Source: Mytilus trossulus (lineage: Eukaryota). From it: 64,000 nt of DNA. The position numbers and the translations under genes are program-made. Shown piece by piece: positions 772 to 8,616 of this stretch (the stretch's first letter is position 1; each line of letters opens with the position of its first letter). A model generated the notes under the pieces. It was given only the letters and a program-made list of their open reading frames with translations, searched no databases and was not told where the DNA came from. The stretch lies in contig NC_086379.1 of assembly GCF_036588685.1 (NCBI RefSeq), positions 47,678,001-47,742,000 on the forward strand. Reading direction: 5' to 3'.

Positions 772-1031
772 AGTTAGACGGGTTCAAACAGAAAGATTTG
801 AAAGCAGAGAAAACTGTGATAACTATCTTATAATCGGCACGACTTTATCAGATGACAATACTAATACAAAAATAAGTCTTGCGCATAGGTATATGCGCAT
901 GTGTGAAATAAAATGTCGACTATTTTTTCGCTCCTCAAATTTTGAATTTGAAAATGGATTATGATGTGTTTATATGTGGTTTTGACAAAAACATTTAATT
1001 CATTCTGGTGGAAAATAAATAGACAGTCTTT

Positions 1032-2324
1032 ATGAATCCAAAGAAAAGTGATAAACCAAAAAGGAAAAGGAATAAATCAAACGGACAGAACACAAGTGGT
1101 GAGAAACCAAATAAAAGGAAATCGAATAGTACTCACACTGATAGTAATAGTGTAACCAAAAGTGTAAACAAAAGTAAGAATCTTAAATCTACTGACAATC
1201 CAATTAAACCTGTGTCAAACATGTCGATACAAAGTACTCCTGTTCACGAATCTCCAATGGTCGAACATAATAGAAATTATCAGCAATTCCATAACATTCA
1301 GAATCCAAACTTCTTGCAAACCTCGCCAACACCATCAACCCTAGGATTTTTTCCTGGTACCCCTCAAAATACTTACATGCAGCCAATGATGCACTCGAAT
1401 ATGAACCCAGCTTTCATAGATAACGGAGGGAAAATTGATCTTTTAACCCAAAAAGTAGACATGATATGTGAGAAAATATCAAACATTGACAAACTTACCG
1501 AAAAACTTAACAAATTTGATAAAACGGTAAACAGTATGGTTAAAGGTATCGAGAGTATCAATAAACGAGTCGACGAGGTTGAAAAAGGTTTGAACTTTAT
1601 CAATGCAGAATTCGAAAATAACAAAAAGGATGTCCGAGAAGTAAAAAAAAACCTGACAGAGATCCGCTCTGAAAACGAAGAAGCAACCAAAACTATTGAT
1701 AAACTACGAACAGATTTCGAAGATCTCAACGAAAGACAACTAGATCTCCAAACTAGGTCGATGAGGGAGAATTTGATTTTTACGGGTATCCCAATGTATG
1801 ACGAGTCTGAACAGTCGGAGGAAACAGAGAAAATTATCGAAAATTTTATGACAGTGGAATTAAAAATGGAATCATTACCGAAATTTCATCGAGCTCATCG
1901 TTTCGGTAAAAAATTCACCGGAAAAAATCCTGACGGTTCTATTAAATTTGTTACTAAACCTATAGTATGTAGATTTGTAAATTTCAAGCAACGAGAACTC
2001 GTACGGAAAGCAGCTAGAGAATTAAAAGACACAAAATACGGCATAAACGAACAGTTTCCGAAGGAGATAAACGACCGTAGGAAGGCACTGTGGCCCCACT
2101 TTCAAGAGGCACGTCGTCAAAGGAAAAAAGCTTTCTTCAAGAGGGACCACTTATTTATTGAAGGGAACGAATTTACACCAAAAGACACCACTAAAGAAAT
2201 GGACACTAACGATAGACAGACACGTTCACGCCACCAATACAACGAACAAGGAGCTCGACCGAGAGAATTCAACCAGTCGAAATTTTCACAACCCCGTAGA
2301 GGACCCCGAAAAGGACAGAACTAG
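1032..2324 (+). CDS. LINE ORF1p, 430 aa (basic N-terminus, coiled coil, L1-type RRM and CTD)
   Basis: Intact ORF; K/R-rich N-terminus; heptad region IDKLTEKLNKFDKTV...LQTRS; motifs SMRENLIFTGIP, FHRAHRFG, PIVCRF and INEQFPKEINDRRKAL typical of L1/Transposase_22-like ORF1. Confidence 0.9.
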   Translation: MNPKKSDKPKRKRNKSNGQNTSGEKPNKRKSNSTHTDSNSVTKSVNKSKNLKSTDNPIKPVSNMSIQSTPVHESPMVEHNRNYQQFHNIQNPNFLQTSPTPSTLGFFPGTPQNTYMQPMMHSNMNPAFIDNGGKIDLLTQKVDMICEKISNIDKLTEKLNKFDKTVNSMVKGIESINKRVDEVEKGLNFINAEFENNKKDVREVKKNLTEIRSENEEATKTIDKLRTDFEDLNERQLDLQTRSMRENLIFTGIPMYDESEQSEETEKIIENFMTVELKMESLPKFHRAHRFGKKFTGKNPDGSIKFVTKPIVCRFVNFKQRELVRKAARELKDTKYGINEQFPKEINDRRKALWPHFQEARRQRKKAFFKRDHLFIEGNEFTPKDTTKEMDTNDRQTRSRHQYNEQGARPREFNQSKFSQPRRGPRKGQN

Positions 2325-5300
2325 GAATACCGTGGAGGATTGAAAAGTACCGTTAGAAATGACCAGTGTAAACAAACTAGCGACCTTCACTCTTGTTCAT
2401 TACCTGTAAATAAAGATACATGTATTGATGTTCACAACAAAACTATTGAAATCCTTTCATTAAATGTATGTGGTATAAAAACAAAACTTTTGTATCCTGA
2501 ATTTAAGTCATTATTAGATAACCATGATATTGTATGTTTAACAGAAACAAAACTAGATGATGTAGACGAAATAGATTGTGATAATTTCATTTTTCATTAT
2601 AAAAACAGAAAGAAGCTAGCAAATCACAAATCTGGTGGTATTGCTTTGGGTTTTAAAAAATACTTAGACAAGTATATTAAATATATTCAGTCAGACTGCC
2701 AATTTGTACTTTGGTTTAGTATAGACAAAAAAGTTTTAGATTTATCAAAAGATGTTATTTTTGGAATTATATATATCCCACCGATAAATACTTCATATAC
2801 ATCAGAAGATGCATTTACTGAAATTGAATTTGAATTACAAAATTTTTGTAGTAAAACAAACTATATTACTATGCTTGGTGATTTTAATAGTCGCACGGGA
2901 AATTTGTCTGATTTTTATAATATTGATAAAGATAGTTCTTTTGAAAATAATTTCACAGATTATAATGAATTAAGTGATGTTGATGTTTTAGATGAACTTG
3001 GTATACCAAGACTGAGAAATAGTATAGATACTGTAGTAAATGGGTATGGAAGAAAATTTATTGATTTTTGTAAAAATAACAGAATGTTTATTCTTAACGG
3101 TAGACTGGAAGAAAACAAAACAGGTAGTCCAACTAGTAGAAATTCTAGCGTTATTGACTATGCTTTGAGTTCTACTCATTTTTTATACTACATTTGTAAA
3201 CTTGAAGTGTTAAATTTTTGTAAACTATTTTCAGATGTACACTCTCCTTTGTCTCTTCAATTGTATACAAATAATGACATACAAGACAAATTGTTAACAG
3301 AACCACTTTGTTGTGGTGACGAAAGAGTAAATAAATGGAAAAATGAAAAATGTAATGAGTATAAGAACAATATAGATAGAAATAAGGTTGATGATATATG
3401 TAATAGATTGTCTGCATATGTAAATGATGTAAATAATGTTACTAAATATGATATGAATAACATTGTTACTGATATTTGTGATACTTTAACCGAATCTGCC
3501 AAGGCAACATTCGGAACTTCGACATTTAATAAAACTATGTTTAAGTGCTCAAAGAACCAGTTTAGTAAAGACTGGTACAATAAAGATTGTAAAAAAGCGC
3601 AACGAGAATTTAGAAAATCTCAGAGGTTATACAAACATTATGGGTCGAACATTTTTAAAGAACGACTTAGACAAAGTGAATTGCATTATAAAAAAGTTAT
3701 GGATGTTAATATCAAGAATCATAATACTGAAATGAGTAAAAAGATGAAGGGATTGAAAACAAAAAATCCCAAAGAATTTTGGAAATTGTTCAATAGAGGT
3801 AGAAAAAGAGAGAAAAGCAATATTTCACTGCAAAATTTATTTGATTTTTTCAAGGACTTAAACAAAAATAAGTTCGAAAATGAGTTTTTGATAGAAAACG
3901 ATGTAAATTCTGATACAGTAAATGAAAATTTGAATTGTCCAATAACCCGGGAGGAAATTTTGAAAGCTGTAAAAAAAGCTAAAAATAATAAATCACCGGG
4001 TGAAGACCAAGTAATTAATGAATATATTGCTTCTTCTCTTGATTGTATGGTTGATATTTATGTATATTTATTTAATATTGTATTTGATACGGGAATTTTG
4101 CCTGAGGCTTGGCTTATTGGAAATGTAATACCTATTTTCAAAAACAAGGGGAGTAAATTAGACGCCAAAAATTATAGACCGATTACACTTTTGTCTTGCC
4201 TTGGGAAAGTTTTCACTTCAATTCTTAACGACAGACTTGGGGATTTTATTGAAAATTATAACATCTTAAACGAAAACCAAGCAGGTTTCCGGCAAGGTTA
4301 TTCCACAACAGATCATGTTTTTTCATTACATGCTTTATTTGAATTATTGCGGGTGAAAAAGAAGAAATTATTTTGTGTATTTGTCGACTTCGAAAAATCT
4401 TTTGATTTTATCCATCGAAACTCATTATTTTTTAAACTGATATTAAACCATGTGAACGGAAAATTTCTAAGAATTATTAAAAATATGTATGATGATGTCA
4501 AATCTAAAATTGTTCATAATTCAGAAGTTTCTGATATTTTTGCTTGTGAAACAGGAGTTAGACAAGGGGAAAACCTTTCTCCTTTGCTTTTCTCCCTGTA
4601 TCTAAATGATTTACAAGAATTTTTTAGAAAACTCTAATATTGAAGGAATACAGTGAGTCTGTAACAAAAGATATTGAAAATGAACTTTTTGTATATTTTA
4701 AATTTTTTCTGTTATTGTATGCTGATGATACAATACTACTTTCTGAATCTAGCCATGATTTACAATGTATGTTGGACAAATTTTCAGAGTATTGCAAACA
4801 ATGGAAATTGAAAATTAATATAAATAAAACGAAAATTATGATATTCTCAAAAGGTAGAATACCTAGAAACTTATTATTTAATATAGATGGAAATGAAATT
4901 GAGATAGTCAGTAGTTATAAATATCTTGGTATTGTATTTTCTAGAAGTGGCTCATTTCTTTCCACCAGAAAATATCTTCGTGACCAGGCGATTAAAGCAA
5001 TGTATGCTGTGATAAAAAAATCCAGATTAAATAACTTGTCGATCGAGTGCCAACTCGATATGTTTGATAAGGCTATTGTTCCTATACTAACTTATGGGTG
5101 TGAGATATGGGGATTCGAAAATTTAGATATTCTTGAGAGAGTTCATTTGCGTTTTTGCAAACATATATTGAGGTTAAAAAATTCGACCCCCAATTTTATG
5201 GTCTATGGGGAATTGGGAAGATGTCCCATTTCTGTTACCGTCAAGTCACGTATGATTAATTTCTGGTGTCGTTTACAAGAAGGAAAAGAGAGCAAACTAT

Positions 5301-5905
5301 CATGTTTATTATATAAGCTGTTATATGTAAATTTTAATAACTATGGTTATGATAGTAAATGGATATTATATATAAAGAAAATTTTTGATGACTGTGGAAT
5401 GTCAAATATATGGCAAAGTCACAACTTATTTGAGAAACGTTGGGTTGTATTGAGTGTTCAGCAAAGATTAAGAGATCAGTTCATTCAAGAATGGTCAACA
5501 GAAATGAACACTTCGCCCAAGGGGCTGTGTTATAGATTGTACAAAAATGTTTTTAAATTTGAACACTATTTATCAGTTTTACCATTTAATTTATTAATAA
5601 CCTTATGTAAATTTAGATGTGGGAATAACCGTTTGCCCATTGAGACGGGAAGGTGGCGCAACATACCAAGATCTGAAAGATTGTGTCACCTTTGTGGCTC
5701 AGCTGACATTGGTGATGAATACCATTATATCATGTCTTGTAATTATTTCAAAGATGAAAGATGCAAATACTTACCTCATTATTGTATTAAAAATATAAAT
5801 GTTATCAAATTCAAACAAGTATGTTCAACCCAAAATATTGTTGAACTTGAGAAACTTTGTAGATTTATTAAATCTATTTCTGTGAAAGTCTATCCTCCTG
5901 GTTAA
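2325..5905 (+). pseudogene. LINE ORF2 (AP endonuclease, reverse transcriptase, C-terminal CCHC-like motif), frameshifted at ~4620-4657
   Basis: EN motifs SLNVCG, CLTET, GDFNSR, IDYAL, SDVHSP; RT motifs NYRPITLLS, QAGFR, FVDFEKSFD, GVRQGENLSP, LLYADDT, YKYLG; C-terminal CHLC-x8-H-x4-C. Split into 2340-4637 and 4640-5905. Confidence 0.92.
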
Positions 5906-6204
5906 TACAACTATATGTTTATTTATCATTTGTGTAAATATTTATCATATTAATTTTGTATTTCACACATGCTATATCTTATATATGTTATATATATTAT
6001 TGTAATATCTTCTCTGTAACTATGTATTTGGTTTATGAGAATAAAGATCATTCATTCATTCATAGTTATATACTTGAATTCAGTCCTAGATCGGACCCGC
6101 GATATCACGGGTGTGTTCTAGTTATTATTAAATATAGTTGTTACTGTCATGTGTTTTATTTCGAAGAAATTGTTAGAACTGACTCGGTATGTATTAGGTA
6201 ATTA

Positions 6205-6380: not shown

Positions 6381-6871
6381 ATCATTTTTAACCACGAATA
6401 ATATCTAAATTCTAAATCAAAATGTAACGCAAAATCATAGACACTGGTCGAAGTATAATACCATATGCATGGACAAGTAATACAGGCAAATTTTGCGCAT
6501 CTTAATCTACCGCAAACGAGCATGAACTAGGAAAATTGATTATTGGAAACTTGTCTTAACAATGGGAGGGATGGCAAAAACTGTATTTTATGAAATACTG
6601 CTATGTCTCTTTTTTTTTCTTTAACGTTTAGGTACAAGACTATTTTAATATTGTACTTTTAAATTATTTGCAATCATTGAACATTCTAGTTACATAGCAA
6701 CAATCAAATTATATGGTTTACCACTTAAAATGCTAATTTATCCTTTATATAATATTTTTAAATATAAGTTATCAGTTTTATTTTCTGTTGACATCTTTTT
6801 TTTTCAATGCTGGTGATGATAATGCTTCGATCTTTTATAACATATACATTTTTGAACAATTTACTTTTAAG

Positions 6872-7161
6872 GGCTGACAAGCAATGAATTGGCGATAGAA
6901 CCAAGTGATAAACACCTTGTTAGATTAGGAGGCAAAATTGGAATCAAGTCATTTGAAGAGTTTTTCATTAATTTGGGAATGAATAAAAAAGATTGGGAAA
7001 GTACTGAGTATATGTATGCTGGTCACAGTTCTGATGGCATAATGTCGATGGCACTGAAACAATGGAGAAAGACTAAGTTGTCAAAACTGGAAAAACATAC
7101 CTTGCAAGATCTAACTGATGCCATGAGAGCAGTAAATCTGGGTAGTCATCTTATATGTCAG
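6872..7161 (+). CDS. Death-domain gene, antepenultimate exon (first death domain)
   Basis: Acceptor ttacttttaag|; LTSNELAIEPSDKHLVRLGGKIG...LGMNKKDWE...MALKQWRK...LQDLTDAMRAVNLGSHLICQ fits the death-fold pattern; donor cag|gtacag, phase 0. Confidence 0.8.
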
Positions 7162-7675
7162 GTACAGAACAAGTTTGATAATATCTGTAAAATAGAATTT
7201 CGTTTGAAATAATGCTTGAATATTAAAACATATTGCAATGATTTGAATTTTTTTTTCTATGATTATCATAATGTTTTTATTATAGTTTATCGTAAGTCGA
7301 AAAAATAAAGTCGTCTTCGTTGAGAACCAAAGTGATATGTATTTATTTCTGAAAACAGTTCTTTTCTGAATTTATCTTTATATCACATTCTTCGATTAAT
7401 TTCTGTTATTCCAATACAGTATAGTGCAAAGTGAAATAAAATATCTGCAGATAACTGAAAGTTTGTTGTTAAACTTACATATGTTCAAAAGTCAGGAACT
7501 TTGTCAGTTGGTGCAAATAGTTGTAGCTAGAAACAGCATCTATAGATGCACAAATTTGTATAGAAACAATTTCTGTTTTGTTGAGCATCTTCCTTTTTCA
7601 TTTTTGGAATATTTTGCCTTGTGTGCTGATATATTAAATGTCTTTTCTATATTTTAAACTATTTCGTTGTTTTAG

Positions 7676-7703: not shown

Positions 7704-8296
7704 GTAAGTATTACATTTTTGGGAGAAAACATATAATTTGATTAAGACAATAACAATTTTTTTTTTCATATGAGATTAAAGTGCTGATTATAGATTAACA
7801 AGGATAATTCATCAATATTTTCAATATTTAAAATTTGACTACAACCTTGTTTTGTTATTTAATGTTTATGACCCAAAACTTTTTTTTGATATTCTAATAG
7901 TTTAAGATTGTGTATCGTCATTTTCGTTTGTATTATTCTTATAGTTTAACAATTTTACCAAACAAGGATTGGATTGCATGGCGTCATTGAACCAAATGTT
8001 GACGCCTTTGCGACATTTTTTTTTTCAAAATTATTTTGTATTCTTAAACAATGCCTACTAGGACTTAGGTAATAATGTGATTATCCGAATTCATATCGAT
8101 TCATATTTCATTTTTGTTATCATTCAGTAAAGCTTTTTGCTAAAGTTGGATGTCGGCTTGGTTTCTTTTTTTCCCTTGTTTGTGTGTGTATAAATACGCT
8201 TCAAAGTAGAGTCACAATTGAAAATAACACAGTTTATCATAACACTGGAAAATAACTTATTTGTGTAGCTCTTTAAATTTATATTTATTGCACTAG

Positions 8297-8616
8297 AAAT
8301 AGCAGACTTCAATCTCCAAGCCATTCCAAGTGATCACCATTTAAAGGAGTTGTCAAACCAAATAGGAAATTGTCCACTGCAGCTGGGAATAGAACTTGGA
8401 TTAACCTTCACAGAGGTTGAGCAGAGTTTATTTGGTTTTCCGAAAGATTTGCCTGGTTTGGTTGAAGATATTGTGATGAAATGGAAGAGAAAGTCAAAGG
8501 TTAAAACTATCCATAGTTTGATGCTCGCACTTGAACGAGTAAACGCAGGTGGAATCAGATATTTACTTGACTTATCAAAAAAGCTCGCAGATGCTAATCT
8601 TGCTAATATAACATAA
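8297..8616 (+). CDS. Death-domain gene, terminal exon (second death domain)
   Basis: Acceptor tttattgcactag|; EIADFNLQAIPSDHHLKELSNQIG...LGIELGLTFTEVEQ...IVMKWKRK...TIHSLMLALERVN..., stop TAA at 8614-8616. Tandem C-terminal death domains are seen in mollusc ROCO-like immune proteins (inference; upstream exons are outside the window). Confidence 0.82.

Follow-up and report, generated by a model that had tools for sequence, protein, structure and literature searches.

How a long interspersed nuclear element (LINE) translates its second open reading frame (ORF) is a long-standing question, and one copy in the genome of Mytilus trossulus poses it anew. The copy lies in a 64,000-nucleotide stretch of forward-strand DNA (assembly GCF_036588685.1, contig NC_086379.1, positions 47,678,001 to 47,742,000), hereafter the window, in whose + strand numbering the coordinates below are given. 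A near full-length LINE occupies about 893-6063. Its ORF1 (1032..2324), which begins at an ATG at 1032 and is recognized by a profile match as L1-type (coiled coil, RRM, CTD), terminates with TAG. ORF2 (2325..5905), encoding an endonuclease (EN), a reverse transcriptase (RT), and a C-terminal CCHC motif, follows in the same frame with no AUG of its own nearby. The original prediction suggested that the two may be joined by programmed readthrough of the UAG, stimulated by a stem just downstream. Comparison of copies and families gives the readthrough idea strong support through the conserved frame, the conserved UAG, and stop-free linkers, while a local stem of the murine leukemia virus kind is unsupported as the stimulator. 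We consider it probable that this two-ORF LINE makes an ORF1-ORF2 fusion by UAG readthrough, stimulated by a predicted long-range helix.

Within the window's own family, the frame is open from 2325 into EN and RT across the single UAG. The first in-frame ATG of ORF2 is at 2871, residue 183 past the stop and three codons 5' of the GDFN aspartate (2880). As had been anticipated, a start at this ATG would lose parts of EN, since the invariant N (2463), E (2544), and Y (2772) all lie upstream of it. TAG-G (2322..2325), the conserved candidate readthrough site, ends ORF1 in 17 of 17 copies with a full junction, which belong to two subfamilies with ORF1 about 84% identical. The frame is open to EN in 16 of these copies, and the remaining one has a private TAA. 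In copy L176, ORF2 stays open for 1192 codons past the TAG; the window copy has a private frameshift near 4620-4660. Two simpler accounts, in which the TAG is a private nonsense mutation or the TTG at 2340 is a lost ATG, are ruled out by the family copies. The TAG is common to all 17 copies and to other families, and where the window has TTG, the sister subfamily reads TTA and copy L005 TTT, never ATG. Nor does the ORF1/ORF2 frame vary among intact relatives, and alignment of family copies and relatives found the UAG-G context and frame kept. A sequence pattern for the junction returned 27 matches, all within already-known copies, against one control match. Single-copy exceptions comprise TAG to TAT in L082 and L183 and TAG to TAA in L181. 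The TAT copies (G000:C2:43037013, L082/L167; G000:C13:58700025, L183) have a natural ORF1-EN open frame; both carry further changes and look private.

Beyond this family, loci were gathered by ORF1-protein searches, which are independent of the junction. These yielded 100 and then 36 loci with both domains, after exclusion of loci without an EN start (10 of 110 and 4 of 40); the first set includes some places twice. Exactly one in-frame stop was present in 81 of the 100 loci and in 31 of the 36 further loci. The one-stop loci were grouped into 40 families, with cluster F02 folded into F01, F10 into F09, and F14 into F13, and RT identity among families spans 33-86% (median 45%; 38 RTs compared). 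Four groups had no intact junction copy and were excluded, namely F11 (decayed), F31 (an in-frame TAG, with every copy broken elsewhere), F33 (a sole copy 1 nt out of frame), and L216. All families that retain an undamaged copy conform to the in-frame pattern. ORF1 ends with TAG in 39 of the 40 families and with TAA in one, whereas ORF2 ends with UAA in 23, UGA in 8, and UAG in 6 of 37 families (Fisher p 4e-14 for the UAG excess at the end of ORF1). Two families with private frameshifts near the end of ORF2 (F04, F22) were left out of the ORF2-stop count and given wider zones in the scans below, and F15 had no usable 3' end. Position +1, directly 3' of the stop, is G in 34 of 40 families; the spacer is biased to C or T at +6 (27/40) and to C at +7 (21/40), and conservation 3' of the stop chiefly takes the form of a purine box at +10 to +14. 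The sole TAA family (L165, F01) comprises three copies plus a related metagenome contig and keeps both of the long-range helices described below.

The linkers that connect the stop to EN strand 1 (2325..2444 in the window, without a stop or ATG) range from 33 to 291 nt (11-97 codons) and take 25 distinct lengths, every one divisible by 3. Their 1203 in-frame codons contain no stop and three ATGs, compared with 90 and 198 stops and 48 and 25 ATGs in the other two frames; the lack of in-frame stops is partly a product of selection because representatives were picked for an intact junction. An in-frame ATG stands ahead of EN in just one of the 40 families. The codon right after the stop takes 13 forms, and the families have no CTG, GTG, TTG, or ACG position in common. 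The three in-frame ATGs all belong to F17 (L129, L130, L148, L217), which has a 95-codon linker and in which the distal helix is not the best site. This family may be shifting to reinitiation.

The stem originally put forward as the stimulator pairs GUGGAGG (2332-38) with CCUUCAC (2384-90). These arms do pair in the single-sequence minimum free energy structure, but the fold is no better than shuffled sequences (z from -0.51 to +0.26 in four windows). Covariation did not materialize: eight related families keep 45 of 56 pairs, just 30 of them Watson-Crick, and the sole two-sided change, in F04 at the first A-C of the arm (G-U versus G-C), is of uncertain register. The local stem was rejected as the readthrough signal because shuffles match it and it has no convincing compensatory support. 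A compact local H-type pseudoknot was likewise unsupported by local folds and comparison, with no dedicated pseudoknot program used. The pattern of conservation suggests that both arms make more sense as the 5' arms of a pair of predicted helices whose partners lie at ORF2's 3' end.

In the first of these, AUCCUCC (5892-98), within ORF2's final codons, is complementary at every base to GGAGGAU (2334-40). The predicted 5' arm of helix 1 (2330..2340) reads CCG, a bulged U, and GGAGGAU, with its core at +10 to +16, and the predicted 3' arm (AUCCUCC UGG, 5892..5901) lies 3.56 kb from its partner. Helix 2 is nested inside, pairing a predicted 5' arm at 2382..2390 (GACCUUCAC) with a predicted 3' arm at 5882..5890 (GUGAAAGUC), and was found in the 8 nearest families. 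In the window's family, where a C-A mismatch interrupts helix 2 and every pair of the local stem is intact, an alternative fold is possible.

To locate partners across families, positions +4 to +21 were scanned against the whole downstream element for the best duplex. In the first scan, 17 of 24 families had their best partner at -45 to +60 relative to the ORF2 stop, as against 0 of 24 for each of five control windows, which were scanned at a coarser step. Cognate duplexes had a mean energy of -15.1 kcal/mol versus -10.6 kcal/mol for non-cognate ones, and none of 100000 permutations reached the cognate mean. The 3' zone was then widened to the poly(A) signal, and the test was fixed before new families were fetched. 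The best partner lay in the widened zone in 32 of 39 families (22 of 26 training, 10 of 13 held-out), where 0.68 of the 13 held-out families were expected; the nominal p of 4e-11, like the other p-values, overstates the case because the families are related and the tests assume independence. One held-out miss, H08, fell 5 nt outside the zone. Six control windows gave 0-2 of 39, and composition-matched shuffled queries gave 8 of 117.

The 3' partner site ranges from within ORF2 to +316 yet follows the sequence of the 5' arm, and core columns +10 to +14 alternate between G-C, A-U, U-A, and C-G among families. Helix 1 has 67 of 80 cells paired (60 Watson-Crick), with compensatory changes. In helix 2, 67 of 72 cells are paired across the 8 nearest families (63 Watson-Crick), with compensatory changes in F07 and F09. 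When the partner is taken as the best duplex in the 3' zone, +10 to +12 are paired in 46 of 46 families, whose linkers span 0-97 codons; the helix core starts at +10 and often reaches to +6. One subclade (L137, L139, L146, L194, L195) has its distal arm near the poly(A) signal, at +98 to +316, and in some of its members the 5' box is displaced by 3-6 nt.

A deeper group of elements was found via a stop-free EN motif pattern, GFWN[VI]NG, which matched 36 places and gave one control match. A TAG stands three codons 5' of GFWN in all 30 loci examined (about nine families), so EN strand 1 starts at the first post-stop codon, and the in-frame upstream ORFs reach 410 codons. That codon (GTT, GTG, GTA, GCA, TAC, CTT, or TTA) aligns with residue 8 in L1 EN and, in the exonuclease chain 5cfe, with Met1. 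None of the 30 loci has an in-frame ATG between the stop and EN, where a ribosome would have no space to scan for a start codon. The duplex test covered seven of the nine families, the other two having no usable 3' end. The duplex begins at -51 to -55 in all seven, six of which have their best site there. At +12, A-U and G-C are swapped, a silent change in EN being matched by an Ile/Thr change at the end of ORF2. Local folds in this group vary from family to family.

With ORF1, an APE-RT ORF2, no long terminal repeats (LTRs), and a short-repeat tail, the window LINE has the architecture of the RTE-X clade. Judged by eye in the PMC10294476 alignment supplement, its RT follows RTEX-10_CGi along its length (YRPITL.SCLGK, GVRQGENLSP), and the CR1-Zenon and Proto2 rows differ from it. 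Because the RT follows RTEX-10_CGi rather than CR1-Zenon or Proto2, membership in RTE-X is likely. RT motifs of the deep group match RTEX-1_LG, also by eye; the RT trees were built from this genome's families alone. In supplement 25 of the same paper, a by-eye reading of the first 400 bases per consensus, rather than a census of the 84 RTE-X records, identified TAG-G in frame before EN motif I in five bivalve records, S.grandis_24, _37, and _10, S.constricta_60, and P.maximus_101. The M.edulis_68 record starts with AG-G at the junction position, and a Proto2 record has an ATG there. A metagenome contig (L220) from the scan with profile A2 contains an ORF1 tail and EN in frame over one stop, with a frameshift upstream; the A2 scan of prokaryote genomes gave no match, and a metagenome scan with the EN protein found no relative. 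A search for natural ORF1-ORF2 fusions returned one of 191 candidates, the Mytilus edulis gene model P0001. This sole longer homologue found bridges ORF1 and EN over the stop, apparently via a predicted intron.

The in-frame UAG junction is real and clade-wide. Sequence comparison establishes the frame, the UAG, the missing ORF2 AUG, and a complementarity that covaries, linking positions of about +6 to +16 to the end of ORF2 or the 3' untranslated region (UTR). From these elements, a mechanism can be proposed. Most ribosomes would terminate at the UAG and release ORF1p. On a folded, 3'-complete RNA, the helix would stand at the mRNA entry channel when the UAG is in the A site and would favor a near-cognate tRNA over eRF1. 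Near-cognate decoding of the UAG would then yield a minor ORF1-ORF2 fusion, and the enzyme would be made solely from full-length RNAs. Reading through would require the ribosome to open the 5' arm and, in many cases, the 3' arm too, which would limit the output of ORF2p. With less assurance, we lean toward a broader proposal in which the whole animal RTE-X clade makes its RT solely as a readthrough fusion, the 3.5-kb RNA loop switch acting as a full-length check and a self-limiting cis gate, convergent with tombusviruses.

Several observations weigh against this account. One family has TAA as its stop, six lack the +1 G, the F17 linker has its three in-frame ATGs, and P.maximus_101 has an ATG within EN strand 1. 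A better partner lies elsewhere in 7 of 39 families (F01, F17, F25, F30, H06, H09, H08). In the deep group, the duplex falls outside the prestated -45 edge by 6-10 nt in all seven families, a formal miss. Evidence for the long-range helix comes from families of this genome, and readthrough itself is argued from sequence comparison.

Other explanations must account for the same junction. Readthrough could be real while the helix serves otherwise, in avoiding nonsense-mediated decay by bringing the poly(A) end near the ORF1 stop, in packaging, or in target-primed reverse transcription. Such a role would fit a 3' arm that adjoins the 3' UTR, where reverse transcription begins, and an RNA with about 3.7 kb downstream of the ORF1 stop, and the tombusvirus distal element doubles as a replication switch. 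We nonetheless judge it unlikely, as the 5' arm keeps a fixed offset, +10 to +12 in every family, that is the known position of readthrough stimulators. A different possibility dispenses with the fusion: after termination, translation would resume at the next codon independently of AUG, or reinitiate as in L1 and SART1, so that ORF1p and ORF2p would be separate proteins and the helix would serve to retain the ribosome. That L1 ORF2 initiation is AUG-independent and that SART1 needs a downstream structure both count for this possibility and against readthrough. The first post-stop codon of the deep group aligns with Met1 of 5cfe, so a protein begun there would hold the whole EN domain, and a few families have GTG as the post-stop codon. 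The post-stop codons at large, however, include GAT, GAC, GAA, GGA, AAA, TAC, CTT, and others with no common start codon, and reinitiation needs neither a UAG (39 of 40 families) nor stop-free in-frame linkers of up to 97 codons, which makes it an improbable explanation of the junction.

Changes to the RNA itself could also remove the stop. Adenosine-to-inosine (A-to-I) editing by ADAR, acting on the long-range duplex, would make the UAG read as Trp in a fraction of the transcripts. In hepatitis delta virus a UAG is edited to a Trp codon, UAG is the triplet that ADAR prefers, and the duplex here adjoins one. Against this, the A of the stop is paired in 23 of 46 families, close to what is seen 5' of the stop (positions -12 to -1, 14-24 of 46), and one family has TAA. 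Contigs of the runs X1, X5, and X16 across the stop show no A>G, a weak point because contigs drop minor variants and their RNA status is merely guessed. Editing is highly improbable. Splicing, with TAG/G as a 3' splice site and ORF2 translated from spliced RNA, is scarcely credible: the junction does fit YAG/G and the P0001 model joins ORF1 to EN across the stop, but the upstream bases lean toward purines with no pyrimidine tract, and splicing would not keep ORF1 in frame with ORF2. No joint at 2324 appears in the contigs of four sequencing runs, of which X11 does not reach over the stop, again weak evidence, and P0001 also removes post-stop codons, so its acceptor is not this TAG.

UAG readthrough stimulated by a distant helix, the account we prefer, has precedent outside LINEs. 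In tombusviruses, the PRTE-DRTE long-distance interaction (~3.5 kb) is essential for UAG readthrough, according to the available parts of PMC5893793. The likeness to p33/p92 of carnation Italian ringspot virus (CIRV) and tomato bushy stunt virus (TBSV) extends to an in-frame UAG-G between an auxiliary protein and a polymerase and to a ~3.5 kb pairing of stop-proximal and 3'-end sequences, which in the LINE is predicted only. Tombusviruses are plant RNA viruses, whereas the element here is an animal non-LTR retrotransposon. Their proximal element is the bulge of a local stem-loop; the LINE has no conserved local stem-loop, and its distal strand, often within the last codons of ORF2, would itself form the helix ~9 nt past the stop. 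Function has been tested in tombusviruses, whereas the LINE helix is known from sequence prediction. Moloney murine leukemia virus (MoMLV) gag-pol (type III) shares UAG-G and a structure ~9 nt downstream; the available parts of PMC3159437 and PMC13517186 place readthrough stimulators 8-9 nt past the stop, where the LINE helix is predicted to begin. The LINE spacer bias also resembles the G1, U6, and C7 bases described as functionally important in PMC13517186, within the parts available. The LINE differs in that no compact local pseudoknot like that of MoMLV is supported and in that it codes for no protease that could cleave the fusion. With L1 and SART1, the element has in common a bicistronic LINE RNA, an L1-type ORF1, and an EN-RT ORF2, and SART1 also needs a downstream structure. 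In those elements, an ORF2 AUG lies near the ORF1 stop and separate proteins are made, whereas the LINE here has no such AUG and a fixed frame and UAG.

The available parts of three reviews of LINE translation (PMC5972666, PMC5009743, PMC2881922) attribute reinitiation to L1 and SART1, frameshifting to HeT-A, and StopGo to other elements, and do not mention readthrough. Accounts of RTE-X (PMC3905857, PMC11203168, PMC10294476) are, in the parts available, silent on the in-frame stop. No earlier description of the RTE-X junction or helix was found among the papers searched, judged mostly by title or the opening of the abstract; Repbase or Dfam notes, outside that scope, may mention the stop, and the helix is less likely than the stop to be already on record.

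The remaining anatomy of the window copy is that of a largely complete insertion. Its 5' UTR (893..1031) begins at ~893-895, an end common to three other copies. A profile of ORF1 from 27 families (A1) matches LINE-1 ORF1p (2yko) with an E value of 9e-6. The APE-type EN domain (2445..3194) contains the first in-frame ATG (2871); a profile search of PDB chains with EN was significant and allowed alignment to L1 EN and 5cfe, while EN as a single sequence had no significant match in PDB. The 3' UTR (5906..6063) has AATAAA at 6040-45 and a (TCAT)n tail, and 6061..6071 is a possible target-site duplication, matching 884-894 at 10 of 11 bases by eye. The near clade has a conserved 3' UTR element (window 5970-6045), TCTCTGTAAC...TTTATGAGAATAAA, whose deep-group counterpart is AGTCTCTCATAA...GGTGAGACT; it is likely a terminal stem-loop read by RT. 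The start of ORF1 in the window has no 2A/StopGo-like motif. By eye, two RTE-X records of supplement 25 (S.grandis_54 and _13) have at their 5' ends GDVE.NPGP, which we take to be such a motif. Upstream of the LINE, 250-460 and 600-780 form a diverged repeat pair, and L126 has similar sequence after its insertion. Downstream, 6871-7212 and 8269-8616 hold short ORFs that resemble host-gene death-domain exons by eye. Elsewhere in the genome, ORF1 fragments form a tandem array with a period of about 1464 bp (G000:C2:76644385-76653375 and 76717080-76718759).

The junction offers an exact, mutable target: about 45 families supply natural compensatory pairs for its two short arms. If the proposal is true, annotation at the junction is wrong for the ORF2 start of RTE-X elements and for some bivalve gene models (P0001). 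Readthrough would add a third way for LINEs to reach ORF2 and would provide a portable long-range readthrough element in animal cells, and long-distance stimulation of readthrough would extend from plant viruses to animal retrotransposons. Synthesis of ORF2 would moreover be tied to an intact 3' end, a possible basis of cis preference.

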